Assembly: GCA_013813185.1 (NCBI GenBank)
Contig: JACCSD010000114.1
Location: 1-26,987, forward strand
Source: Burkholderiaceae bacterium
Lineage (GTDB): Bacteria; Pseudomonadota; Gammaproteobacteria; Burkholderiales; Burkholderiaceae_F
Direction: 5' to 3'
DNA length: 26,987 nucleotides
Part shown: positions 171 through 26,819 of the stretch, piece by piece
How the letters are laid out: each line of letters opens with the position of its first letter
How positions within the stretch are numbered: position 1 is the stretch's first letter
The notes under the pieces: generated by a model
Database searches by the model: none
What the model was told of the DNA's origin: nothing
Seen by the model: only the letters and a program-made list of their open reading frames with translations
Program-made: the position numbers and the translations under genes

Positions 171-758
171 TCACCGCGCCTTGCTTTCTGCTCCGCCGTC
201 CGCTGCAATCTCCTGACGTTTGCGATACGGTGCGATCACCTGCTTGTCCAGCCAGCGTGAGAACTTGTGGGCGACCGGATCGGTGCGGCGATCGAGCCAC
301 GCCTTAATTCCGATTTCGGAAAATGCCAGCAGTCGCGTGCCGGGCGGTCTGGCGAGGCCGTCGCGTCCTGCAATCTGGCGCACGCGCGCAACGTCGCGTT
401 GGCGGCCGTGCAGATCGAGGGCATCGAACACGTCGGTGGCGGCAATCCAGATCGAATCGCCCTGCATCAGCATCCGTATCTGACGGCCGTCGAATTCGTA
501 GTAGGACCCGTTCCACTCGGCTGAGACGCTGTCAGACTGCCACCGCCACCACCCGCGCAGAGTGCGGTAGCCGGGCCAGAGAAGCCAAAGTCCCCAGAAA
601 GGCGCGACCAACACCAGGCTCAGCGCCCCAGTGCCGGCCCTGATATCGGTCAACCACAGAGTGCCGCCGATGACGCCCCACGCGATCCATATCATCCAGC
701 CCCATCGAACGATGCGCTCGTCTGGGTCGTGTTCAAGCCATGAGACCGGGCGCGTCAT
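171..758 (-). CDS. Membrane protein: two N-terminal TM segments + C-terminal BRO-N-like domain
   Basis: 195 aa. Hydrophobic Trp-rich segments WGWMIWIAWGVIGGTLWL and ALSLVLVAPFWGLWLLWP. Then YEFDGRQIRMLMQGDSIWIAATDVFDAL ... FSEIGIKAWLDRRTDPVAHKFSRWLDKQVIAPYRK, matching the BRO-N pattern F.FEG..VR......PWFVA.DV..AL ... INESGLY.L..RS.KP.A..FKRWV...VLP.IRK. Confidence 0.7.
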   Translation of the reverse strand: MTRPVSWLEHDPDERIVRWGWMIWIAWGVIGGTLWLTDIRAGTGALSLVLVAPFWGLWLLWPGYRTLRGWWRWQSDSVSAEWNGSYYEFDGRQIRMLMQGDSIWIAATDVFDALDLHGRQRDVARVRQIAGRDGLARPPGTRLLAFSEIGIKAWLDRRTDPVAHKFSRWLDKQVIAPYRKRQEIAADGGAESKAR

Positions 759-919
759 CAGCGAGAGCGAATCGGGGTCAGCCGCGCCGGCGCTCCTCCT
801 CCATCAGTTCCTGTTACGAGGTGAACGTAGAAGCCCTTTTCGGCTACAAGCCTGCGGCGCGCTCGTTCTGCGCTGGCGGCGTCGTTCGAATCGATCGACC
901 TTGCGGGTTCGATGCTCAT
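758..919 (-). CDS. Small 53-aa ORF, N-terminal part resembles the 2TM-domain family
   Basis: Not in the ORF track (<60 aa). Manual translation: MSIEPARSIDSNDAASAERARRRLVAEKGFYVHLVTGTDGGGAPARLTPIRSR*. GGAG lies about 9 nt upstream of the ATG. Its TGA overlaps the next ATG (TGATG at 760-756). Confidence 0.55.
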   Translation of the reverse strand: MSIEPARSIDSNDAASAERARRRLVAEKGFYVHLVTGTDGGGAPARLTPIRSR

Positions 920-958: not shown

Positions 959-3900
959 TTACTCAGCATTCTTGGCGGGTTGGTGCGTCAGCGCCGGCGC
1001 GCCGTGACGGCGCCCTTTCAAACGCCGTTCCAGCGCATCCAGATATGTGTAGAGCACGGGCACCACGACCAGCGTCAACAGTGTTGACGTGATCACACCG
1101 CCGATAATGGCGCGCCCCATCGGCGCCTGCTGCTCGGAACCTTCGCCGAGCCCGATCGCCAACGGCAACATGCCGAATATCATCGCCGCCGTGGTCATCA
1201 GGATCGGACGCAGGCGCACTTGACCTGCAGCGAGCAAAGCATCGTTGCGCGTCCGGCCCTCGCGCTGGCCCTTGTTCGCAAAGTCAACCAGCAGAATGGC
1301 GTTTTTCGTCACGAGCCCCATCAGGAACACGATGCCGATCATCGAGAAGATGTTCAGCGTCGTATTGGTAATCAGGAGCGCGAGCATGACGCCGACAATC
1401 GACAACGGGAGCGACGCCATGATCGCAAGCGGTTGCAGGAAACTGCCGAATTGCGAGGCGAGCACGATGTAGATGAAGATCACCGCGAGTGCGAGCGCCC
1501 CGAAGATCGCTGCGTTGACTTCTTCCTGCTCGCGAATCTGGCCGCCGACATCGAAACGCAATCCCGGCGGCAGCTCGTAGGCTTTCACCATCGCCTGCAC
1601 TTCTTTGCCCGCATCGCCCGATGGGCGCCCTTCCACGTTGGCCCACAAAGCAATTCTGCGTTGCAAATCCTGGCGCCGGATGTTCTCAGGATTGAAAGTC
1701 CGCTCGATATTGGCAATCGCGCGCAGCGGAATCACCTCGGGCGTGCCGTCGGCCATCTGCCGGCCGGTGGCGATGTTCAAGCCCGAGATATCGTCGACGA
1801 CGGTACGGCTCGCGCGCGGAATCTGCGTGATCACTTCGTAGTTCTGGCCGTCCGGCGCAAGCCAGTAGCCGGAATTTTCGCCGCCGATCAGCGCCCGCAG
1901 CGTCGTGCCGAGCTGCGCATACGTGACGCCGTACTCGGACGCCAGCTCGGGCTTCAGACGAACCGACAGCGCCGGTGTGCCCTCCTTCGCCGACACTTCA
2001 ATATCGGTAATGCCGCGAATCGACAGGATTTTCTGTCGCAAGTCGGCGATCACGCGCTGCATTTCCGCGTCGTTGTTGCCGAGCAGCGCGACATAAATCG
2101 GGCCGCCCCAACCCACTTTCATCTCGATCCCGGGAATCGCCGCGAGCCGCCGGCGGATCGCCTGTTCGAGCTTTTTCTGCGAGCGATCCCGTTCCGAGCG
2201 CGGTACGAGTTTCAAATTCAGGCGGCCGGTGTTCTTCGCGCCCTCGGTGCCGATGCCGGTGTCGATCGAGTCGATCTCCTTGAACTCGCGCAGCGCCTGT
2301 TCGACACGCTTGACGCGCTCGTCGGCGTACTCAAGGCTGGAGCCAACCGGCATCGTCAGCCGCACGCTGGTAAAACTTTGGTCGCTCTCCGGCATCATCT
2401 CGGTGCCCACGATTCCGCCAATCGGAATCGCAAGCGCAAAACTTAGCGCCGCAATCCACAACGTGATTCCGCGCGGGCTGATCGTTGCAAAGCGTGGTTT
2501 CAGGTGGCGGACTTCGAGCGTGCGCAGTGCGCGCCAAACTCCGATCGACGGCAGGCCGACCGGAACATTGAGTTTCGGCACAGTCGTGCCAAGCGTCCAT
2601 TGGCGCGGCGACAGGACCCAGCCGAGCAGCCGGCCATAGATCGCATGCACGCGGTCCATGAAGCGATCGAAGGCGCGCAGCACCGGGCCGACGAAGCGCG
2701 CATCGTGCATGCCGCGCGGCGGATCGCGCCAGACCGCAGAAAGCATCGGATCGAGCGTGAAGCTGACGAACATCGACACCAGCACCGCCACTGCAACAGT
2801 GATGCCGAACGGATAGAAAAACTTCCCGACGATGCCGCCCATAAACGCGATCGGCACGAACACCGCCACGATCGAGAACGTAGTCGCCAGCACGGCAAGA
2901 CCGATCTCGTCGGTCCCTTCGCGCGCCGCCGTGTAGTGGTCTTTTCCCATGTGGATATGGCGCACGATGTTCTCGCGCACCACGATCGCATCGTCGATCA
3001 ACAGGCCGATGCACAGGCTCAACGCCATCATCGTCATATAGTTCAACGTAAAGCCGAACACGCGGAGCGCAATGAAGGTTGCGATGACCGCGATCGGCAG
3101 CGTGAGTCCCGTAATCACGGTGCTGCGCCAGCTGCCGAGGAAGAGGAAGACAATCAGCACGGTCAGCAGCGCGCCTTCGATGATCGTCACCTTGACGTTA
3201 TTGACCGCGCCCTTGACGAAGTCCGAGGTCGAGCGCAGCAGCTTCAGCTCGGTGCCTGCCGGCAACAGCTTGCGGATGTCTTCGGCGGCGATCTTCAGAC
3301 TGTCGCCGACCTGCACGATGTTGGCGTCCTGCGCCTTGAATACGTAGAAGCTGATCGCCGGAGCCCCGTTGATACGGGCGATCGAGCTGCGCTCGCGCTC
3401 GGTATCGAATATTTCGGCGACCTGCGACAGCAGGATCGGCGCCCCGCTTTTGCGCGCGACGATGATCTTGCCGAAATTAGCCGGGTCTTCGATGCGGCCG
3501 TCGACGCGCACAATGGCTTCGACCGTGTTGTTGCTGATCGTGCCGACCGGCACGCTGACATTCGCATTGCGCAGCGCGGTGACAACTTGATCGACGGTCA
3601 GGCCGAAAGCCGTCAGACGTCCCGGGTCGACCCGCACCTGGATCTCGCGAGTCACGGTGCCGCCGAGCGAAACCCGACCGACGCCGCTCACGCGTTCGAA
3701 GCCTTTCTGCACGACCTGCTCGCCGAGCGTCGTCAACTGGCGCTGCGACAGACCGGTCCCCAACAAGGCATAAAAAGCCACCGGCTCGTCGTTCTCGTCG
3801 CCGCCGCGTTGTACGACCGGGTCTTTGACGTCGCGCGGAAATCCGGCGCGGATCTGCGCAATCTTGTCGCGCACTTCCTGCGTCACTCGGTCGGTGTCGA

Positions 3901-4195
3901 CGTCCAGCCGGAACTCGATCCATGAATACGAGATGCCCTCGTACGACGCGGACAGAATGCGCTTGACGCCGGCCACCGTGTTGACGGCATTCTCGATCGG
4001 CTTGGCGATGTCGTTTTCAACCTGCTCGGGCGACGCGCCCGGATAGCGCACCTGGATCGACACGACCGGCGGACGCACATCCGGCATCGCTTCGACCCCT
4101 AGCTTGGCGTACGAAAAGAGCCCGAGTACGGTGAGCGCCACCATCACCATCGTGGCAAACACGGGGTGATTGATCGAAACGCGCGTGATCCACAT
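959..4195 (-). CDS. RND efflux transporter permease subunit (AcrB/AcrD/AcrF family)
   Basis: 1078 aa with two large periplasmic domains and 12-TM layout. Motifs [28 protein letters not shown] and RLRPILMTT. Confidence 0.97.
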
Positions 4196-4211
4196 CGGCG
4201 GATTCTCGGAG

Positions 4212-5381
4212 CTAGTTTCTCGCCGGCGCCTGGCGATTTCTGTCGGCGACGCTCGACTCGGCAGCCAGGCTGATCACTTTCGCGGCGAGTCCATCCTTCA
4301 GATTGTCGAACTTGGTGGCGAGCACGACTTCCCCCGGCGCCAATCCCGAGGTCACTTCGATCAGCTGGGCCCGCTCGTCGCGCTTGCCGGTGGCGATGTT
4401 GCGGCGGGCGAGTTTCTCATCGACGACGACCCATACGAAAGTCTGCGCAGCTTCGGTGCGCACTGCCGACAGCGGCAGCGCAGGGACTTCGATTTCCGGA
4501 GAAATCGTCAGCAGCACGCGCGCGAACATGCCGGCCTTCAACAAAGAATCCTCATTCGCGAGCGACACATAGACATTGATCGTGCGCGTTCCGGGCTCCG
4601 CGCTTGGATTGATGCGCTCGACCCCTCCCTCAAACTTGCGACCGTCGATGCCCTCGACGCTGATCTGAGCCGGCATGCCCTTGCGAATCTGAGTGACGTC
4701 GGAGATCGGCACCTGTGCCTGCACCTCCAGCTGTGCCAGATCGACGATCGACAGCAAGGGCGCATCGAAGCTCACCTTCTCGCCGGGCTGCACATGACGC
4801 TTCGATACCGTTCCGGAAATGGGCGCGCGCACGACGGCATCGGTCATCGACAGTTGGGTCAGCTCGAGCTGTGCCTGAGCGGTCGCAACAGCCGCAATCT
4901 GCACTTGATGTGCGCTACTGGCGGTATCGAACGCATTCTGCGAAATGAAGTTCTGCTTAAGCAGTTGCGAGTTTGCCTGCCGCGTGCGGTCGGCCATCGC
5001 CAACTGCGCACGCGAAGACTCGAGCGCCGCCTTGCGCTCGGCCATTTGCGCGCGTAACTGCGCAGTATCGAACTCCGCGATCGACTGACCGGCAGTGACA
5101 CGGTCGCCCTCACGGACCAGCACCCGTTTGACTTCCGCCGACAGCTTGGCGCGCACGGTCGCCTGCGAAACGGCGTGCACCGAGCCCGGCACCGCGAGCT
5201 CAACCGCCAGACGCTTCGCTTGCAGCGAGACGACGTCGCGTTGCGCAAATTCAAGCGGCGGGCGCTCCCGCTTCTTTGCGGAGTCTCCGTCTGCCTTCTT
5301 CGACGAGATCGCGATCGCGGCGCCCGCGATCCCGACGGCAGCCAACGCCGCGGTCAGTATCCATCCTGTGCGCTTACGCAT
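4212..5381 (-). CDS. RND efflux periplasmic adaptor (membrane fusion protein)
   Basis: N-terminal anchor (MRKRTGWILTAALAAVGIAG), lipoyl-like VLVREGDRVTAGQ, alpha-hairpin, VRAPISGTV. Directly upstream of the RND permease. Start at ATG 5381 preferred over the ORF-track start 5405. Confidence 0.95.
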   Translation of the reverse strand: MRKRTGWILTAALAAVGIAGAAIAISSKKADGDSAKKRERPPLEFAQRDVVSLQAKRLAVELAVPGSVHAVSQATVRAKLSAEVKRVLVREGDRVTAGQSIAEFDTAQLRAQMAERKAALESSRAQLAMADRTRQANSQLLKQNFISQNAFDTASSAHQVQIAAVATAQAQLELTQLSMTDAVVRAPISGTVSKRHVQPGEKVSFDAPLLSIVDLAQLEVQAQVPISDVTQIRKGMPAQISVEGIDGRKFEGGVERINPSAEPGTRTINVYVSLANEDSLLKAGMFARVLLTISPEIEVPALPLSAVRTEAAQTFVWVVVDEKLARRNIATGKRDERAQLIEVTSGLAPGEVVLATKFDNLKDGLAAKVISLAAESSVADRNRQAPARN

Positions 5382-5437
5382 TCCAAGAATCCCCCTGGGA
5401 TGCATGACTCGTGGCCAGGCACCCGTAATGGGGCGCG

Positions 5438-5465
5438 ATTATCCTCGACCCGGGATGGGCGTCAC
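5438..5465 (-). promoter_or_regulatory. Possible sigma70 promoter of the efflux operon
   Basis: Minus strand GTGACG (5465-5460) - 16 nt - GATAAT (5443-5438), about 57 nt upstream of the adaptor ATG. Weak match only. Confidence 0.3.
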
Positions 5466-5531
5466 CGGCGCTGCGACGAACTGCGGCGAGGTGCGACGAA
5501 ATGCAGGGACTTCAGGTTCAGCGTGCCGGAC

Positions 5532-13044: not shown

Positions 13045-13983
13045 CTATTTTGCGACGAGTTTGCCGCTGCGCTGAATCGCCTTCTGGATTTCGGCGACAG
13101 CGTCGTCGATTTGCTCTTCGGACAGCTCTTCGTCGACGCCTGGCTCCCCGACTCTTGGCATCTGAATCGTCGATGCAACCGTCCCCTCGGGAATCAGCAA
13201 CGTCGATACCGGTGCCTCGCTCGGCGGCACCATCTCCATAGACTCGGTGCCGGCCCAGGTCATCGCGACGCCGGTGCAGTTATCCGACTCGGGTCCGCCC
13301 AGCTCCAGCGCGAGCTCTATTAACTCCGGCACCGCGCGCATGACCGTCTTGCCGACGAAAGCGTCGGCGACTTGACGATCGTTCAACGTGCCCCACAGGC
13401 CGTCCGAACACAGCAGCAGCGTGTCGCCGTTGCGCAAAGCCACCGGCCGGCTGATCTCGACCGTCGGTGCGACGTAGGCGCCGATGCAGTTGAATATGCG
13501 ATTGCGTTCGGGATGATCCTTCGCGTCTTCGGGGCGTATCAAGCCCGATTGCACCAGGTGGTGCACGCGCGAATGGTCGATTGTGCGATCCAGAATGCGC
13601 CCGCCGCGAATCATGTACAGCCGGGAGTCACCCACGTGTGCCCAGATCGCAACGCCTTGTTGCACGATGCACGCCACCAGTGTCGTGCGCGGCGCCTCGG
13701 GCAGACTGTGCTCGGCCCGGTACCGATGCAATTCGCGATGTGCGGCCAGCACCGAATCTTCGAGAAAGCGCACCGGGTCAGGCAACAGCGGCTTGGCATC
13801 GCGCTGATAAATCGATGCCAACGTTTGCAGCGTCAGCTGCGAAGCCACCTCGCCGCGCGCGTGACCCCCCATCCCGTCGGCCACCAGCATCAGCATCGAA
13901 TCGCGCGTGTACAGGTACCCCATGCGATCCTGGTTGATCCGCCGGCCGCCTTTCTTGCTCTCTTGGTAAACGGAAAAACGCAT
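13045..13983 (-). CDS. PP2C/PPM-family Ser/Thr phosphatase
   Basis: [32 protein letters not shown] and DNCT metal-binding motifs. Confidence 0.93.
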
Positions 13984-14054
13984 GAAGGAACGATCGCTCG
14001 AGAGATCTGCTACAACGCGACCAAGTTTCGCGCCTTTTGCACGCAGTTACTCTC

Positions 14055-14086
14055 AAAAAATCGTCTGGCTTTGCCAGCGATTTTTT
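14055..14086. terminator. Intrinsic terminator-like hairpin (potentially bidirectional)
   Basis: AAAAAATCG-T-CTGGC-TTT-GCCAG-CGATTTTTT, between the kinase and phosphatase genes. Confidence 0.55.
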
Positions 14087-14096
14087 GCAAACCAAT

Positions 14097-14126
14097 CGCA
14101 CAAAAGTAGGGGTGCACTTTTGTGCG
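14097..14126. other. Perfect 11-bp inverted repeat after the kinase stop codon
   Basis: CGCACAAAAGT (14097-14107), 8-nt loop, ACTTTTGTGCG (14116-14126). Confidence 0.7.
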
Positions 14127-14130
14127 CCTC

Positions 14131-15126
14131 TTAGAACCAGGTGATGTTGTGATCCTTCATGAAACGGGTGACCCGCTCCTGCAGGTTGCGCCAGCGCGCA
14201 CCGGTGCGCTCGGCCATCGAGAACTCGGGCCGCTCGGGCACGTTTTGCAGCAGCTCCTTTTGCACCGCGAACACCGTCTGCGGCCGTTCCAATGAATTGA
14301 GCCGCAAACAGCGCTCAACCATCGAGATCAACTGATTCGAGTACAAACCGCGAAACGAGCGCAGCGCGGTCGGCATCTTGTCTTCCTTGAGCCGATGGTC
14401 TGATTCCTGCGGCGGCATGCCCGACATGCACGCATAGACGCACGATCCGATCGAATACACGTCGGTCCACGGGCCAAGCTCGGCATCGCGCTTGTACAGC
14501 TCGGGCGCGGCGAAGCCCGGCGTATACATCGGATAGGTCTTGCTGATGTCTCTCTGCAGCGTCTGCCGCGCCGCGCCGAAATCGAGCAGGATCGGCGTGC
14601 CGTCCATCCGCAGGTACACGTTGGCGGGTTTGACGTCGAGATGCAACAAGCGATTCGAATGCACTTCGCGCAACCCATTCATCACCTGCGCGAACACGCG
14701 CCGGATGAAGCGCTCGGACAAAACGTCTTTCTGGTCCTTGTTCCGGTTGCGCAATACGTGTTCCTGCAGCGAGCGACCGGATTCGTAGTGCATCACCATG
14801 TATACCGTCTCGTTCGCGCGAAAAAAATTGATCACGCGAACGATGTTCGGGTGGTAGATCGACGCGAGCGCCCGGCCTTCCTCGAAGAAGCACTTCAGGC
14901 CGATGCGGTAGGTGTTCAAATTCTCGGGCGCGATGTAAGGCGCCAGCTCGCCCGGCTTGCGCTGCGCCAGAGCGGCCGGCATGTATTCCTTGATCGCCAC
15001 CGAGTTGCCTTGTTCATCGGTCGCCAGATAGACGATCGAGAATCCGCCTGAAGATATCTTCTTTACAATGCGATATCCGCCGACCTCGAGGCTTTCAGGT
15101 AACGATGAGTTGGTTTGCGCGGGCAT
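14131..15126 (-). CDS. Hanks-type Ser/Thr protein kinase
   Basis: GGFSIVY glycine loop, VAIKEY, HLDVKPAN catalytic loop, DFG, YTPGFAAPE, DVYSIG. Soluble, no TM. Start at ATG 15126 preferred over 15189. Confidence 0.93.
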   Translation of the reverse strand: MPAQTNSSLPESLEVGGYRIVKKISSGGFSIVYLATDEQGNSVAIKEYMPAALAQRKPGELAPYIAPENLNTYRIGLKCFFEEGRALASIYHPNIVRVINFFRANETVYMVMHYESGRSLQEHVLRNRNKDQKDVLSERFIRRVFAQVMNGLREVHSNRLLHLDVKPANVYLRMDGTPILLDFGAARQTLQRDISKTYPMYTPGFAAPELYKRDAELGPWTDVYSIGSCVYACMSGMPPQESDHRLKEDKMPTALRSFRGLYSNQLISMVERCLRLNSLERPQTVFAVQKELLQNVPERPEFSMAERTGARWRNLQERVTRFMKDHNITWF

Positions 15127-15313
15127 CGTGTTGCATTTTGGGAACCGCGGCGATTCTAGCCAATAGGACTCGGTGGACCGTAACAACAATAAGGTGCGTT
15201 TTCGCCTGTTTTCGTCTTAAACCTGCGCCAACCGTCCCCGATATCTCTTGATAACTCGCCCTTGATGATGTTGCTTTCGCCGCTTTCATCGTTGCTTTCC
15301 CGTTGAATCTGCC

Positions 15314-20471: not shown

Positions 20472-20927
20472 CTACGGCTTCTTGGCCGGCGGTGTTGGGT
20501 TGTTCGGCATCGGTGTGGCGGCCGGGGCAGTGCCCGGCGGCTGCGTGCCCGGCACGATGCCCGGGGCGGCATTCGGGCTCGAGGCCAGGTTGTTCTCGAC
20601 GCGCTGCACGCCCGAAACGCCCTTGGCGACTTCGACCGCGCGCGCCAACTGGGCCGGAGTGTCGACGGTCCCCGTCAGCTTGACGGTGCCGCTGTTGGAA
20701 TCGACGTTTATCTGCGTACCTTTAACCATCTCGTCGGCAATCAACGCAGCCTTCACTTTAGTAGTAAGCGCGGCATTGTCGACCACATTGGCGGTGGCGT
20801 TGGTTGCCTGTTTGGCTTCCGTGCGCACTTCCTGGCGTTCGGAACGCGAGCATGCGGCGAGAACGAGCGCGGCTGCGGTGGTCACGACCACCGCTCGCAA
20901 TGTGTGACGTGCAGCTTTCTGCATCAT
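20472..20927 (-). CDS. BON-domain lipoprotein (OsmY-like)
   Basis: RBS GAGGAG. Lipoprotein signal ending LVLAA-C. BON domain DNAALTTKVKAALIAD...INVDSNSGTVKLTGTV...AVEVAKGVSGVQRVENNL, then a Pro-rich tail. Confidence 0.9.
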   Translation of the reverse strand: MMQKAARHTLRAVVVTTAAALVLAACSRSERQEVRTEAKQATNATANVVDNAALTTKVKAALIADEMVKGTQINVDSNSGTVKLTGTVDTPAQLARAVEVAKGVSGVQRVENNLASSPNAAPGIVPGTQPPGTAPAATPMPNNPTPPAKKP

Positions 20928-21032
20928 TTTGTGGCTCCTCTTTGGGTAAGTTAATTTATTCGAGCCCTTGCTTGCATGTCGACGGGCCCATGCCTCGCAC
21001 AACAACAAGCTTCGGCGCAAGCAATCAGAAGT

Positions 21033-21048
21033 CGCAAGTTACATGCCC
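21033..21048 (-). promoter_or_regulatory. sigma54 -24/-12 motif upstream of the BON gene
   Basis: Minus strand GGGCATGTAACTTGCG, GG-N10-GC with TTGC. Confidence 0.7.
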
Positions 21049-21085
21049 GGCCGGCGACCGGGACGGAGCATTCAGGATCAGGCGC

Positions 21086-22465
21086 TCAGGCGGCGCGGCG
21101 CTCTTTCGGAGGCTGATTTCCCTCGCCGCCGTATTCCTTCAGCCGGTTATAAAGGGTCTTCAAACTCACGCCCAATGCGGCAGCGGTCCGTTCCTTGTGG
21201 CCCTCAAAGTGTTCGAGCGTCGCAAAAACCAGGTCACGTTCCACATCAGCGAGGGTAGTGCCGATCCGTACCGACAGGATCGACTCCGCGTTGCCGGCCG
21301 AAGAGCGCCCGGCTTGCAATTCGAGCCATTCATCACTGATCGTTGCGCCAGACGCCATCACATAGGCACGCTGCACGACATTGCGGAGCTCGCGCACGTT
21401 GCCCGGCCAGTCGTACTCGTTCATGCGTTCGTAAGCGCTCTTGCTCAAACGCTTTTCCTTGCCTTCTTCTTTGCAAATTTCCGCCAGGAAGTGGTCCGCG
21501 AGTAGCGCGATGTCCTCTCTTCTTTCGCGCAGTGGCGGCAAACGGATAGGAAAGACATTCAATCGATACAGAAGATCCTCGCGCAGCTTGCCGTCGACCA
21601 CGGCACGCTCGGGCACCCGGTTGGTCGCGCCTAGTACCCGCACATCGGCACGCTGCGTTTCGGTCGATCCGACCCGGTTGAAGGTGCCGGTCTCCAAAAC
21701 CCGCAGCAGCTTGACCTGAAGGTCAGGCGGCATTTCCGTGACTTCATCCAGGAAGAGTGTTCCGCCGTGGGCACGCTCAAAGAAGCCAAGATGCTGCCGA
21801 TTGGCACCGGTGAAGCTGCCTTTCTCGTGACCGAAAATTTCGCTCTCCATTAAATGGGGCGAAATGGCGCCGCAGTTGATCGCGAGAAACGGCCGGCTGC
21901 GACGCCGACTCAGCGAGTGAATCGTTTGCGCCACCAATTCCTTGCCGGTGCCGCTTTCGCCCTGTATGAGCACCGTCACCGCGGTTGCCGCCACGCGTGA
22001 CACTTGCTCGTAAACGCGCTTCATCGACGGCGAGCCGCCCCACATATCTCCGAATCGCCCGCTGCGATCGAGTTCAACGCGCAGATCGGAAATTTCTGCC
22101 TGTAACTGCCCAGGCCGCATCACTCGTGCCAGGATGCCCTGCACTTGACCGGGGCTCACCGGCTTGATCAAGTAGTCCGTCGCGCCCAAGCGCAACGCTT
22201 CAATCGAGGTTTCTAGACTTGCGTGCCCGGTGATCAATACGACTTCGGTGTCCGCGAGCGCTGCTTTGTCGTTGAAGAGCTCGGTTCCCTTGCCGTCGGG
22301 CAAGACGAGATCGAGGAACACCACATCCGGAGCGCTGGTCGCAAGCTGGCGTCGCGCGTCGCGCATGGTGCGTGCAGTCGAAGCGGTGAACCCCTGGCTG
22401 GCGACAAGTTCCGCCAGCATTTCCGCCGTATCGGAATCGTCGTCGACGATGAGTGCGTGACTCAT
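21086..22465 (-). CDS. sigma54-dependent response regulator (receiver-AAA+-Fis HTH enhancer-binding protein)
   Basis: ALIVDDD, FLDLVLPDG receiver; GESGTGKE, EIFGHEKGSFTGA, LFLDEVTEM, WPGNVRELRN; C-terminal TAAALGVSLKTLYNRL. Confidence 0.95.
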   Translation of the reverse strand: MSHALIVDDDSDTAEMLAELVASQGFTASTARTMRDARRQLATSAPDVVFLDLVLPDGKGTELFNDKAALADTEVVLITGHASLETSIEALRLGATDYLIKPVSPGQVQGILARVMRPGQLQAEISDLRVELDRSGRFGDMWGGSPSMKRVYEQVSRVAATAVTVLIQGESGTGKELVAQTIHSLSRRRSRPFLAINCGAISPHLMESEIFGHEKGSFTGANRQHLGFFERAHGGTLFLDEVTEMPPDLQVKLLRVLETGTFNRVGSTETQRADVRVLGATNRVPERAVVDGKLREDLLYRLNVFPIRLPPLRERREDIALLADHFLAEICKEEGKEKRLSKSAYERMNEYDWPGNVRELRNVVQRAYVMASGATISDEWLELQAGRSSAGNAESILSVRIGTTLADVERDLVFATLEHFEGHKERTAAALGVSLKTLYNRLKEYGGEGNQPPKERRAA

Positions 22466-22476
22466 TGCTTCCCCTT

Positions 22477-22554
22477 GTTGTCGCAGGCAACGCTCGGCAG
22501 CTGCGCACTTAGTTGAGCGCCAACGATACCGCAGTTGACGTTGTCGTCGGCAAC
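22477..22554. promoter_or_regulatory. Pair of 15-bp imperfect palindromes (candidate operator/enhancer sites)
   Basis: GTTGTCGCAGGCAAC (22477-22491) and GTTGTCGTCGGCAAC (22540-22554), 63 bp apart. Confidence 0.45.
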
Positions 22555-22652
22555 AGGGAATGTGTTAAACGATCAAGGGAGGATGCCGCAGCCGACGAGT
22601 GGCCGCCTGCGCGCCGCACTGCCCGGGCGTGAATGCGCTAGCGGGCTGGCCC

Positions 22653-22682
22653 AAAAAAAAAGAGCAATAGGGAACTGCCCTA
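22653..22682 (-). terminator. Intrinsic terminator after the 80-aa ORF
   Basis: Minus strand TAGGGCAGTTCCCTATTGCTC followed by T9. Can fold as TAGGG/CCCTA or AGGGCAG/TTGCTCT. Confidence 0.55.
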
Positions 22683-22922
22683 CACGACGTTGCGACCCGC
22701 CTCGACCACCGTCAGCAGAAAATTATGGCGTCCGACAGCGTGTGCAAGGTCCGCAGCGTAGGCGGCCGCCGCCGGCAACGAACTCAGCACCGCACCGGCA
22801 ATCAGCTTGCCCTGATAACCGACAACCCAGCACCCCTTGCCGAGCCTCGCGAGCAAGAATTCATTAGAGCTCGACTTCGCTGCCACTGAGCGTTTAGCGC
22901 GCGCCTGATCCGATGCTTTCAT
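22680..22922 (-). CDS. Small hypothetical protein (80 aa)
   Basis: AGGAG 5 nt before the ATG, near-consensus sigma54 promoter 40 nt upstream, terminator at the stop codon. Confidence 0.75.
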   Translation of the reverse strand: MKASDQARAKRSVAAKSSSNEFLLARLGKGCWVVGYQGKLIAGAVLSSLPAAAAYAADLAHAVGRHNFLLTVVEAGRNVV

Positions 22923-22961
22923 CGTTGCTCCTAAGTTTCGGTTACCAGCGTGAGGATTGTA

Positions 22962-22977
22962 AGCAACGTGCGTGCCA
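22962..22977 (-). promoter_or_regulatory. sigma54 -24/-12 promoter (consensus match)
   Basis: Minus strand TGGCACGCACGTTGCT = TGGCACG-N4-TTGCW. Confidence 0.85.
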
Positions 22978-22998
22978 GCATGCAGTTCGCCGCTGTAC

Positions 22999-23014
22999 GG
23001 GCATGCAGTTTGCT
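22999..23014 (+). promoter_or_regulatory. sigma54 -24/-12 motif, copy 1
   Basis: GGGCATGCAGTTTGCT, GG-N10-GC. Confidence 0.7.
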
Positions 23015-23025
23015 TTTCGTTGTAG

Positions 23026-23041
23026 GGGCATGTAGTTTGCT
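23026..23041 (+). promoter_or_regulatory. sigma54 -24/-12 motif, copy 2
   Basis: GGGCATGTAGTTTGCT, GG-N10-GC; 27 bp downstream of copy 1. Confidence 0.7.
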
Positions 23042-23137
23042 TTTCTCAGCCCACTGCGGTTCGCTGGTGCGTGAAGCGTCCGCTACGTCACTGTTTACTA
23101 AACGAGGCACTTGACCAACCAACTAGAGGTAAACGTA

Positions 23138-23410
23138 ATGATTAACTTCATCATTTGGCTCATCGTGGGTGGCGTCGTTGGCTGGCTGGCCAGTTTGATC
23201 ATGCGGACCGATGCGCAACAGGGAATTTTCCTCAACATTATCGTCGGCATCGTGGGAGCTGCGCTGGGCGGATGGTTGATTTCTCCGCTGCTGGGAATGC
23301 CTTCAATCAACCAGGATGCGTTTAGTTTTGGAGCTTTGGTCGTGTCGCTGATTGGCGCGGTCATCCTGCTCGCGATCGTCAATTTGTTTCGTCGCGGCTC
23401 AGTTCGTTAA
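23138..23410 (+). CDS. GlsB/YeaQ/YmgE family stress-response membrane protein
   Basis: FIIWLIVGGVVGWLASLIM, NIIVGIVGAALGGWL, SLIGAVILLAI; RBS GAGGT; start at ATG 23138. Confidence 0.92.
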   Translation: MINFIIWLIVGGVVGWLASLIMRTDAQQGIFLNIIVGIVGAALGGWLISPLLGMPSINQDAFSFGALVVSLIGAVILLAIVNLFRRGSVR

Positions 23411-23492
23411 GCCCGAGCCGCTGTGAGTGACCTGCACGCGTGAGCGGGCCGGCATTGGAAGAACACATTAACCATAAACAACGGGAGCAAAG

Positions 23493-23837
23493 ATGGAAAC
23501 CACCACTCCGAATACCGGCAATCTTGGTTCAACGGGCAGCACCGGAAAACTCAACCCAAACCAAGCGGCGGACCGCGCGCACACCACGGTGGATCGAGTC
23601 GCCCAAGGGGCGCACGACACTGTCGACCGTCTTGCCTCCAAGGCTGCGCCCATGCTGGATCGCGCGCGATCAGCCGCCACCGATGCGCAAGACACGCTGT
23701 ATGCCAAGTACGATGACTTCATGGCGATGGAAGAAGAATGGGCAGAATCAGCGCGCGATCAAATCCGCGCCCACCCATTGGCCGTCGTAGGCATCGCGCT
23801 GATGGCGGGATTGCTGATCGGCCGCTTGTCCCGCTAG
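23493..23837 (+). CDS. DUF883/ElaB/YqjD-like tail-anchored protein
   Basis: Helical repeats (AHTTVDRVAQGAHDTVDRLA) and C-terminal anchor IRAHPLAVVGIALMAGLLIGRL; RBS GGGAG. Confidence 0.8.
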   Translation: METTTPNTGNLGSTGSTGKLNPNQAADRAHTTVDRVAQGAHDTVDRLASKAAPMLDRARSAATDAQDTLYAKYDDFMAMEEEWAESARDQIRAHPLAVVGIALMAGLLIGRLSR

Positions 23838-23863
23838 TTGCGAAACACGGCTTCAAACTGAAC

Positions 23864-24385
23864 GTGGACATCGCAAGCGATACGGCGGTAGGTGGAGGTG
23901 GTGCGTCGCCGCCGGCAGCGGGCGCAAGCGTGGACCCGCGTGTGCACGCGGCTTCGGGGGGCTCGTCTGCTTCAGCCAGGCAGTCGAGCCGTCGCTCTGC
24001 GCGCGATTCCGGTTCGCCTCCCCTGCGCCCAGGCTTTGCGCAGTTCATTCGTGAGATCCGCGCCGCGTTCGGCGCGCGTTTCCATTTACTCGAACTCGAG
24101 GCGAAACGCGCGGCGTGGTCCGCCGCGTACATGCTGGCGTTTGGTGTCGGAGCGGCTCTGCTTGGAGTCACGGCCTGGCTGATCCTGATCGCGGGACTTG
24201 TCTATGGGGCAGTAGTGGCAGGCGTGCCGTGGATAGTTGCAGGCATCGTGGCCATTGCTCTGCACGCGGTGGCCGTTTTTATGCTGGTGCGCGCAATCCG
24301 GGGCATGGTTGACAACCTGACATTCGCGGCGACGCGTCGCACCTTGGCGGAATCTTCAACGGCCCACGATGACAGCGGCGCTTGA
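23864..24385 (+). CDS. Phage-holin-family (YqjE-like) membrane protein
   Basis: RFHLLELEAKRAA followed by two TM helices; position directly after a DUF883 gene, as in yqjD-yqjE. Start uncertain (GTG 23864 or 23930). Confidence 0.75.
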   Translation: MDIASDTAVGGGGASPPAAGASVDPRVHAASGGSSASARQSSRRSARDSGSPPLRPGFAQFIREIRAAFGARFHLLELEAKRAAWSAAYMLAFGVGAALLGVTAWLILIAGLVYGAVVAGVPWIVAGIVAIALHAVAVFMLVRAIRGMVDNLTFAATRRTLAESSTAHDDSGA

Positions 24386-25184
24386 CTTCCTGAGGACCGA
24401 CATCGAAGCGGCTGAACGAGCCGTTCGATTGGCCGATCAGCGCGCCGCGAACACGGGTCGGGCCTTACGCGCGAGCTGGAAGTCCAAGGGCCCGATGATC
24501 ATGGGTGCAGCAGGAGCAGCGTTGCTTCTACGCCAGGTGCTCAGGGCAAGACGGAAGGTGCCGAGAGACCGCGTGCGCGGGCAGGGACTTGGCGGATGGC
24601 TTCGCTCATACGGGCCATACGTGTCGGCGCTTGGACCGCAGGCGATCACTGCGATCAGTGCGTTGGTCGCTGCGATGGTCGCCAAAAACGCGAAGAAGGC
24701 TCTGGCGAGCGCAGCACATGTAGATCTGGATCGTTTCGTGGGCAGCTGGTTCGAGATCGCCCGCCTGCCGCATGGAACGGATGCGCAATGCGTATCGGAT
24801 GCGCGCGCTACCTATGCAAGGACCGAAGACGGTCTTCGTTTGTTGAGCCTGTGCCGGCGCGAAAACGGAAGCACCAAGCGCTCGACGGGCCGCGCGAAGC
24901 TGACCGACGACGCGACGCAGGCTCGCTTCAAGATTTCTTATTCGCACTCGGCACTCGATGTAATTCCGTTCGTGTGGTCGGACTACACGATCATTGATGT
25001 TGCCGATGACTACAGCACCGCGATGGTCGGTGCAGCCGATCGCAAACACCTTTGGCTGCTTTCCCGGCAGCCGTCGATCGGAGATTCAGTCCGGCAAGAC
25101 TTCCTGAACAAGGCGCGTGCACAGGGGTTCGATACCAGCGCGCTCGTGCTCACGCGGCATTCCGCCGCGAGCACGCAGAGCTAG
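24369..25184 (+). CDS. Lipocalin (Blc-like) with about 110-aa N-terminal extension
   Basis: Lipocalin motifs VDLDRFVGSWFEIARLP, DYTIIDVADDY, LWLLSRQP plus a Cys pair (QCVSD, SLCRR). N-terminus has no lipobox. Overlaps the upstream gene by 17 nt. Confidence 0.88.
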   Translation: MTAALDFLRTDIEAAERAVRLADQRAANTGRALRASWKSKGPMIMGAAGAALLLRQVLRARRKVPRDRVRGQGLGGWLRSYGPYVSALGPQAITAISALVAAMVAKNAKKALASAAHVDLDRFVGSWFEIARLPHGTDAQCVSDARATYARTEDGLRLLSLCRRENGSTKRSTGRAKLTDDATQARFKISYSHSALDVIPFVWSDYTIIDVADDYSTAMVGAADRKHLWLLSRQPSIGDSVRQDFLNKARAQGFDTSALVLTRHSAASTQS

Positions 25185-25205
25185 AGTCTTAGAAGGAGAA
25201 CGTCG

Positions 25206-25403
25206 ATGTCATTTTTCGTTCGTGCCGCCTTGCTGGGCGGCCTTGCCTATGTCGTTTCTCGCGCGGTCCGGAACAGCCAGTATTCGCTGGATTCTTCGCG
25301 GTCCGAAACTCAACGGCTTGCGCGCACGCCAGGCTCTGGTGAAGAAAACCTGAAGACGTCCAGCGATCAACGCTCGGCAATGGATACTTCCGCGCCAGTA
25401 TGA
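25206..25403 (+). CDS. Small hypothetical protein (65 aa)
   Basis: RBS AAGGAG; N-terminal hydrophobic segment (FFVRAALLGGLAYVV) then Ser-rich polar tail; stop codon runs into a terminator. Confidence 0.65.
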   Translation: MSFFVRAALLGGLAYVVSRAVRNSQYSLDSSRSETQRLARTPGSGEENLKTSSDQRSAMDTSAPV

Positions 25404-25431
25404 AAAATGGGGACCCGGGGTCCCCATTTTT
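25403..25431. terminator. Bidirectional intrinsic terminator
   Basis: AAAAATGGGGACC-CGG-GGTCCCCATTTTT, perfect 13-bp inverted repeat between convergent genes. Confidence 0.85.
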
Positions 25432-25444
25432 GCAAGTGCAACCC

Positions 25445-25906
25445 TTAGCGGCCTTTGTTTCGCGAACCACTCAAAGTATCGCGATCCGAACCCGTAGATT
25501 CAGATGAACCTTGGGGTCGATTCGTTTGCTGATCCGTCTTCGACGAACTGCTCGTTCCATATTGGGTGTCCAACGCACCCTGGCGCAACTTGTCGGAAGA
25601 CTGTTCGCCGGCTTGGTTCATCTCCGGAGACTCGCCGTCGTCATCGTTGGCTCCCGCACCCTGCTGGTTGCTCGTTTGACCCCGCTGCGAGCCTTTCTGT
25701 GATCCGGGGTTGCGAGAGTCAGAAGACTCACCCCCGGATCCTTGATCCGATTGGCGCGCGCCCGGCTGTCCTTGCGATCCTGGATTGGAACCCGGTTGGC
25801 CGTGCGACTCTTGGCCACCTTGCTGCTCGGGATTTTTTCCGCTTTGCGAAGTGTTCTGCTGCTGCTGGTCCTTCTGTTCCGGCTTTGGCTGATTCTGCTT
25901 GGTCAT
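25445..25906 (-). CDS. Low-complexity hydrophilic (Q/G/S/N-rich) protein, likely intrinsically disordered
   Basis: 153 aa with no W, F, C, I or V; RBS AGGAG; sigma54 motif upstream; terminator downstream. Confidence 0.8.
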   Translation of the reverse strand: MTKQNQPKPEQKDQQQQNTSQSGKNPEQQGGQESHGQPGSNPGSQGQPGARQSDQGSGGESSDSRNPGSQKGSQRGQTSNQQGAGANDDDGESPEMNQAGEQSSDKLRQGALDTQYGTSSSSKTDQQTNRPQGSSESTGSDRDTLSGSRNKGR

Positions 25907-25975
25907 GTGTAGCTCCTATGGTGTCAAAGCGGGCGATTGCTCGGAATGACTCCGCATCACCCGTAGAAAACTTCC

Positions 25976-25991
25976 CGCAAGCGTTGTGCCT
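25976..25991 (-). promoter_or_regulatory. sigma54 -24/-12 promoter
   Basis: Minus strand AGGCACAACGCTTGCG, GG-N10-GC, 70 nt upstream of ATG 25906. Confidence 0.75.
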
Positions 25992-26032
25992 ACACCCTGA
26001 AGCGCGGGATGGAGTGCGCAATTCATCGCCTC

Positions 26033-26048
26033 GGGAATGCGGCTTGCC
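26033..26048 (+). promoter_or_regulatory. Weaker sigma54-like motif upstream of the HisKA gene
   Basis: GGGAATGCGGCTTGCC, GG-N10-GC with TTGC but a non-consensus -24 element. Confidence 0.35.
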
Positions 26049-26120
26049 GCACTACCCCGCGCTTTGGTGCACCGAGCAGCGCTTAAACCCAACGCGCAAT
26101 CCGGCATCTGCTGACGCTAA

Positions 26121-26819
26121 ATGAAGACGATCGCCGTTGTTGCCGACACCGACCGGCGATGTGGTGCGTACTGGCTCGCAAATCTTGATGCTGCGGGTAG
26201 CACGGCATTGATGGCGGCCGTCGTCAGCCGCTTCAATCATGATCTGCGCACCCCGCTGAACACTATTCTCGGCTGGACGCACTTGTTGCAGCAAGGCGGC
26301 CTCGATGCCGTTCGCGCCAAACATGTCGCCGACGTCATCGCCCGCAACTCGCGCGATCAAACGCAGCTACTGGAAGATTTTGTCGATGATGGCCGCGCCA
26401 TCCTTGGCGCATTGGAATTGCAACGGGTTGCGCTGAACATTGACCACCTGCTGGCAGACGCGATCACGCGTCTGAATCCGTTGCTCACCCTGCACGGCGT
26501 CTCGCTGAACACGAACTTCGACACCACCGACGTCTCAGTCACTGGCGATGTGCGCCGTCTGACGCGATTGGCATACCGGTTGCTGGTCATCGTGACGCGG
26601 CGCGCGCGCGAGGCGACAAAGATCAAGGTCGAAACGGATGTCGATCGCGGGCAGTACGTGCTGGCGCTGTCGGGAACCGCGCACGAGCCGGATTGGTCGG
26701 ACGCGGCGCTGTTGGATTTGCGTGTCAGCACATTGGTCGCGGCGCTGCACGAAGGCGAATTGCAAGTCGGTGCTGACGCAACGCGACCTTGCATCATGCT
26801 CAGATTGCCGTGCAGCTGA
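26121..26819 (+). CDS. Histidine-kinase-derived protein: intact HisKA, degenerate HATPase, no sensor domain
   Basis: H-box NHDLRTPLNTILGWTHLL. C-terminal domain follows HATPase layout (GDVRRL..., LHEGEL, LRLP) but lacks the N-box Asn, DxGxG and GxGLG. Start may be ATG 26211. Confidence 0.8.
   Translation: MKTIAVVADTDRRCGAYWLANLDAAGSTALMAAVVSRFNHDLRTPLNTILGWTHLLQQGGLDAVRAKHVADVIARNSRDQTQLLEDFVDDGRAILGALELQRVALNIDHLLADAITRLNPLLTLHGVSLNTNFDTTDVSVTGDVRRLTRLAYRLLVIVTRRAREATKIKVETDVDRGQYVLALSGTAHEPDWSDAALLDLRVSTLVAALHEGELQVGADATRPCIMLRLPCS

Follow-up and report, generated by a model that had tools for sequence, protein, structure and literature searches.

A membrane-anchored BRO-N domain in a patchily distributed and apparently undescribed family of betaproteobacterial proteins

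BRO-N domains are usually found at the N-terminus of soluble viral proteins, where an effector, for example KilAC, is attached to them (PMC9043618; bioRxiv 2024.01.05.574328). The locus described here raises the question of what such a domain would do at the C-terminal end of a small membrane protein that is encoded on a bacterial chromosome, behind the genes of an RND efflux pump. It is located in the genome of a Burkholderiaceae bacterium, from which we have analysed a stretch of 26,987 nucleotides, termed the window (Table 1). The original prediction for this locus had proposed a membrane-bound regulator or DNA tether, domesticated from phage and possibly coupled to the pump. The underlying open reading frame is a real gene under purifying selection. 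A homologue search of its product has retrieved 166 sequences, the closest named ones originating from Burkholderiaceae MAGs, and comparison with 11 relatives yields dN/dS values between 0.07 and 0.19 for the full length and between 0.07 and 0.16 for the BRO part, with a minimum over the C-terminal domain. Its GC3 of 0.75 is close to the 0.76-0.82 found in neighbouring genes. The window constitutes a housekeeping region encompassing glnA-ntrB-ntrC, hemW, rdgB, rph, gmk and a relA/spoT-type gene, and no phage hallmark gene was detected among its scanned open reading frames, which confirms the predicted absence of phage genes nearby and defines a chromosomal, non-prophage setting. Housekeeping neighbours also prevail in the other loci examined, as opposed to the viral or prophage location of phage Ant and baculovirus BRO proteins. 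Neither a second copy of the gene nor any other Bro-N match was found in the same genome, which is 84% complete. Near-identical DNA is present in soil, sediment and rock metagenomes, with no RNA data listed among the sequencing runs carrying it.

Table 1. Features of the locus, with positions referring to the window.
Feature	Position	Strand	Basis
Gene of the membrane-anchored BRO-N protein (ATG start, 195 aa)	171..758	(-)	ORF list, homologues, dN/dS
Predicted BRO-N domain, aa 86-181	216..503	(-)	Pfam, matches of relatives, structure model, residue comparison
W-x-G-x-Y-Y-x-F motif, aa 82-89 (W 83%, G 98%), joining anchor and domain	492..515	(-)	Alignment
Predicted amphipathic linker helix, aa ~63-80	519..572	(-)	Hydrophobic moment; position inferred
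Predicted transmembrane helix 2, aa ~44-62, conserved Pro53 (68%)	573..629	(-)	Hydropathy in 110 relatives; helix in model
Predicted transmembrane helix 1, aa ~20-38, Trp-rich	645..701	(-)	Hydropathy in 110 relatives; helix in model
Broken 2TM-domain (PF13239) gene	758..919	(-)	ORF list, relatives, deletion comparison, bridging contigs
RND permease (AcrB/AcrD/AcrF family), 1078 aa	959..4195	(-)	Profile matches
RND periplasmic adaptor (MFP), 397 aa	4212..5405	(-)	Profile matches
Candidate operon control region, LytTR-like operator	5435..5504	(-)	Conservation, consensus comparison

Judged by profile similarity and predicted structure, the C-terminal domain is a divergent BRO-N domain. Both motifs on which its initial recognition was based are present in the 195-residue protein, which matches the Pfam family Bro-N (PF02498) between residues 94 and 175, covering profile positions 2-95 of 96, with an E-value of 0.012 and a score of 16.7 bits that does not reach the cut-off of 25.6 bits. 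A match to a PHROG anti-repressor is stronger (E 5e-7). Bro-N is further matched by 49 of 60 close relatives (best E 3.5e-7) and by 21 of the 110 aligned members of the family. The relatives P0052 and P0122 both carry PF02498, with P0122 bearing the NCBI name 'BRO family protein', and in the reverse direction the family profile finds ordinary antirepressor BRO-N domains at E-values between 1e-13 and 1e-19, so that similarity at the level of the family extends over the whole domain. The domain was modelled with a pLDDT of 93 and a pTM of 0.85; a homodimer prediction (score 0.00) was given no weight in either direction. In a Foldseek comparison with viral models, 51 matches were obtained at E≤1e-3, the named ones being mostly BRO-N or antirepressor proteins. 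A sequence search of the PDB gave no match and Foldseek on the PDB returned nothing at E≤1e-3. A structural comparison placed eight solved chains at Z≥5, namely CpGV Orf22-N (Z 9.2, rmsd 3.2, 92 aligned) and, with their Z-scores, Mbp1 (7.6 and 6.5), Bqt4 (7.2 and 7.1), DdrC-N (5.9 and 5.8) and Dachshund (5.8), which are for the most part DNA-binding domains. Core residues shared with soluble BRO-N domains include R95, W104, D109, E148, G150, F166, W169 and V174 besides the S-E-x-G and E-V elements, whereas the W-x-G motif in front of the domain is absent from soluble BRO-N. The assignment to BRO-N has thus held up, with the single protein remaining below the Pfam cut-off, most close relatives matching and the fold in agreement.

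The two hydrophobic segments preceding this domain are helical in the AlphaFold model, with Kyte-Doolittle window means of 1.36 and 1.92 in the protein from this locus and averages of 2.07 and 2.09 in its 110 relatives, and both segments reach a value of at least 1.3 in 104 of the 110 aligned members, which supports the predicted pair of Trp-rich transmembrane segments ahead of the domain. They are followed by a linker with a hydrophobic moment of 0.47 (family mean 0.41), whose helix probably runs along the inner face of the membrane. The loop connecting both transmembrane helices, with a median length of 8.5 residues in the 110 members, is too short to leave room for a periplasmic sensor. In 109 of 110 proteins, the combined number of lysines and arginines in the two flanks exceeds that of the loop, and following the positive-inside rule both ends, and hence the BRO-N domain, would be cytoplasmic, as anticipated in the original prediction. 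The protein terminates about 11-15 residues after the domain (median 11 in the family), which is consistent with the proposed C-terminal, membrane-tethered arrangement and leaves the family devoid of an effector domain.

At least 110 divergent proteins share this layout. When representatives at 50% identity were searched with a profile, 115 of the best 150 matches were full-length proteins, and 110 aligned members have a mean identity of 19%. Of 401 Burkholderiales genomes sampled, 28 from 13 families contained full-length matches, a number that is a lower bound because only eight candidates were scored per genome. Conversely, a sample of 401 genomes of the phylum contained no full-length match outside Burkholderiales. 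In a tree of the domain alone, 55 membrane-anchored and 59 soluble BRO-N sequences are placed on opposite sides of a branch with a support of 100/98. Since all sequences of this unrooted tree were gathered with the same profile, a single origin of the membrane-anchored domain is plausible, and the tree is neutral with respect to a transfer from virus to host. The proposed domestication from phage is thus putative, despite the well-supported separation from soluble BRO-N. No relative was found in IMG/VR contigs, searched with one short pattern, or among phage and plasmid records, for which one family member served as query; both searches are insensitive. The failure to find longer fused forms is weak evidence. 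The protein shares fold and core residues with phage antirepressors and baculovirus BRO proteins (PF02498), but it is not a phage antirepressor: instead of a soluble N-terminal BRO-N followed by an effector, the domain is C-terminal, placed behind two membrane helices, effector-less, chromosomal and on a branch of its own. We found no published description of a transmembrane-anchored BRO-N architecture in a literature search that extended to work other than Iyer 2002 and Zemskov 2000, and the proteins apparently constitute an undescribed family that is patchily spread through betaproteobacteria. In two of its members (L153:5872-6360 in genome G102 and L050:1237-1802), the gene is split over two frames, reflecting either pseudogenes or assembly errors. 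Among other sequences encountered, three gammaproteobacterial loci of a single family (L139, L144 and L145, family f67) belong to genomes with several short soluble BRO-N-like open reading frames, up to eight per genome, that cluster on a separate long branch of the tree, and four profile matches (P0170, P0174, P0182 and P0253, 383-1106 residues) contain three to five tandem BRO-N repeats.

With more than 100 divergent chromosomal members, in which BRO-N is the sole soluble domain and bound to the membrane, the family offers a clean system for studying the function of BRO-N itself, and it is open to experiment owing to named hosts such as Undibacterium and Zoogloea oleivorans. It places a known domain in a new architecture, which, by analogy, would resemble a membrane-tethered DNA-binding protein. 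We consider it most likely, with a probability of about 0.4, that the protein is a membrane-tethered nucleic-acid binder of low specificity, comparable to Bqt4 of fission yeast. Its gene would share a transcript with the pump, but exclusively in this lineage. We favour such a tether because periplasmic sensor, effector domain and a fixed neighbour are all missing, and because a basic, conserved BRO-N domain would be located at the membrane. In this mechanism, the two helices would form a hairpin in the inner membrane with both termini in the cytoplasm, and the amphipathic helix would lie along the membrane and hold the BRO-N domain at its inner face, where it could bind nucleic acid with little sequence specificity. 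DNA, either of the chromosome or while crossing the membrane, would thereby be tethered to the envelope by a dispensable accessory that, in this lineage, would be encoded by the last gene of an adaptor-permease-(2TM) operon under a separate LytTR-type regulator. Its presence in about 7% of the sampled genomes of the order argues against a core role in chromosome biology. If true, the family would add a new domain class to membrane-tethered DNA-binding proteins that is missing from current censuses.

A parallel is offered by Bqt4 from Schizosaccharomyces pombe, whose APSES/KilA-N domain has a related fold at the membrane (Z 7.2, rmsd 2.9, 90 aligned), although the identity of ~9% to this eukaryotic protein describes an analogy and not orthology. 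In Bqt4, the domain is N-terminal and the anchor resides at the C-terminus. The APSES domain binds DNA from its membrane anchor (PMC7464478) and Bqt4 interacts with both DNA and peptides (PMC7464478, PMC6379675), whereas DNA binding of the BRO-N protein is putative. We regard it as possible, with somewhat less conviction than the tether itself, that betaproteobacteria have captured a viral BRO-N once and fixed it at the membrane as a DNA-to-membrane tether or sensor, as counterpart of Bqt4 that might act on incoming phage or plasmid DNA. A viral origin has also been proposed for fungal APSES domains, to which such a capture, if true, would form a parallel.

The residues of the domain do not point in a single direction. 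The retained BRO-N core, several conserved basic residues and a net domain charge of +6 in this protein speak for a tether. Weighing against it, basic positions conserved in soluble BRO-N are altered, since the lysine of the S-x-K-P motif (K160), present in 75% of soluble BRO-N domains, is lost, with K or R in only 5% of the family, and the V-L-P-S-I-R-K segment is replaced by a basic P-x-R-R-R-R helix at the end of the domain. Its HTH-like middle is poorly conserved, with the candidate recognition region (residues 116-145) being the least conserved part, and the median net charge of +2 in the family is only slightly above the value of +1 in soluble BRO-N. Moreover, the best solved structural match, the N-terminal domain of CpGV Orf22 (PDB 4YE7, Z 9.2-9.3), belongs to a viral envelope protein of 12-13% identity, whose aligned part does not contain a membrane hairpin, and the fold alone thus does not force DNA binding. 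The loss of K160 and the match to an envelope protein would also suit a BRO-N domain that has lost DNA binding and instead serves as a docking module bringing a cytoplasmic partner protein to the membrane, a role reminiscent of the related Bqt4 domain, which is a protein-interaction module (PMC6379675). The aromatic character of the most conserved family-specific residues (W82, Y86, Y87 and F89) is in line with such docking. Still, several basic residues are conserved over a mean identity of ~20% (K/R165 88%, K/R180 82%, K/R172 65%) and no conserved partner gene is found nearby, and we thus view docking as an unlikely, albeit the strongest, alternative to the tether.

As a second alternative, the protein could regulate transcription from the membrane in a sequence-specific manner, sensing a membrane property and acting on genes at other sites of the genome. 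Its layout, an anchor connected to a DNA-binding fold, would be appropriate, and hydropathy and charge bias both suggest the combination of transmembrane helices and a cytoplasmic DNA-binding-type domain that is shared by ToxR/CadC-like proteins, where such a domain is likewise tethered to the cytoplasmic membrane. One-component regulators of this kind occur widely, and in ~57% of them no additional domain can be recognised (PMC10269533). However, they employ HTH-type and other MiST-listed domains and Bro-N is absent from the domain table of that census (PMC10269533), the BRO-N protein does not contain a periplasmic sensor and its regulatory role is only putative. In addition, neighbours are not conserved, the only conserved operator in the vicinity is retained irrespective of the gene, and the presumed recognition region is the part that varies most. 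We rate such regulation as less probable than docking.

The genomic neighbourhoods bear on a third possibility of marginally lower likelihood, in which a host-captured BRO-N serves as anti-phage or anti-mobile-DNA factor by trapping incoming DNA or by acting as decoy for partners of phage antirepressors. A virus-type domain, its patchy presence, shifting genomic positions and the location at the membrane would be expected of such a factor. Opposed to that, none of the 110 members has a match in PADLOC (2023 library), and the genes around them largely have housekeeping functions (rpsB/map-glnD, groEL, rpiA, metH, ntrC), with only scattered PADLOC matches among 114 neighbours, so that neither profile nor location places the protein among known defence systems. 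Host-like GC3, strong purifying selection and a stable position per lineage also argue against it. Beyond the lineage of this locus, distant members adjoin rpsB/map-glnD, groEL, rpiA, metH, rbgA, dgt, rmuC and others, with no Pfam family occurring in more than three of 114 neighbours. The position of the gene is stable inside each lineage and differs between lineages, which fits a stand-alone gene. A link to nitrogen regulation, considered in view of glnA-ntrBC here and map-glnD in another lineage, was dropped since other lineages do not contain such neighbours.

The same comparison bears on the coupling to the efflux pump. Among 53 close loci (matches of at least 42% identity), 47 have the permease directly upstream of the gene and in the same orientation, and these homologues are linked to transport genes; the intervening gap often spans 10-130 nucleotides (roughly 130 or less in about 20 of the 47 loci), compared with 200 nucleotides between the RND stop codon and the BRO-N gene in this genome. 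Conversely, an RND permease is nearby in none of 35 distant loci, of which 29 extend for 4 kb or more to either side and several are near kin. In a sample of 91 genomes of the same bacterial family, 43 contain the pump adaptor, 29 of them together with a full BRO-N gene (24 adjacent), 2 with a partial match and 12 with none, and three further genomes encode the BRO-N protein without this adaptor, which is thus present in 29 of 32 gene-bearing genomes. Linkage and co-occurrence are hence not obligate, and the synteny can be ascribed to shared ancestry, as kin are not independent and the link between ntrC and the adaptor is similarly conserved in these loci. The suggested coupling is weakened accordingly, its linkage being restricted to this lineage. 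As side observations, the pair of RND genes (959-5405) forms an operon without a gene for an outer-membrane factor, scores under all listed NCBIfam RND subfamily cut-offs and, in most members of the bacterial family, immediately follows ntrC.

Between permease and BRO-N gene, the locus contains the remnant of a 2TM gene that had escaped the original prediction, in which both membrane helices were lost with a deletion of about 170 nucleotides near position 812 and whose frame, once shifted, ends at a stop codon that overlaps the ATG of the BRO-N gene. The gene is intact (~105 residues) in close relatives and optional in the operon across relatives. Contigs from two other studies span the same junction, and the deletion, common to strains of several studies, is consequently not an assembly error. 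No terminator-like site was found in the gap between permease and BRO-N gene, and since the following gene is mostly on the opposite strand in relatives, the placement at the end of an RND efflux operon is a fair description. In this lineage only, the BRO-N gene is probably expressed with the adaptor-permease-(2TM) operon.

The pump itself may be a LytTR-controlled system. Its upstream region contains two direct repeats GCAnTTCGTCGCA (5504-5492 and 5484-5472) with a 20-bp period, which precede a conserved GATAAT -10-like box (~5443-5438). In the second repeat, 8 of 9 positions conform to the LytTR consensus, while its spacer measures 11 instead of 12-13 (PMC5600425). Four LytTR-domain proteins are encoded in the genome. 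The repeats were found in none of 1000 shuffles and in none of 34 regions upstream of family genes that are not behind the pump. They are present in 35 of 38 loci with the BRO-N gene adjacent and in 9 of 12 pump genomes without it, and since this putative operator persists irrespective of the gene, the pump most likely has its own regulator, presumably a protein binding the repeats. The BRO-N protein is thus probably not the regulator of the neighbouring pump, and its role as dedicated regulator or accessory subunit, despite the shared strand, proximity and terminator-free gap, is the least probable of all readings considered and quite improbable in itself; a new mode of efflux regulation is apparently not at hand. 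A strict scan of the genome revealed two other candidate repeat sites only (C7 and C358).

Further features of the window were noted in passing. Positions 1-170 harbour a REP-like palindromic repeat, inside which the contig terminates; it matches about 40 contigs of the genome, frequently close to their ends. A pair of genes coding for a Ser/Thr kinase and a PP2C phosphatase (13045-15189, minus strand) is located between rph and a yicC-like gene. Finally, positions 20472-26819 hold a cluster of small stress-type genes, named by eye from the sequence. It encodes a BON-like lipoprotein, a sigma54 response regulator, a lipocalin-like protein extended at its N-terminus (24369-25184) and a low-complexity protein rich in Q, S and G (25445-25906), and it includes an open reading frame (26121-26819) that resembles a histidine kinase lacking a sensor.
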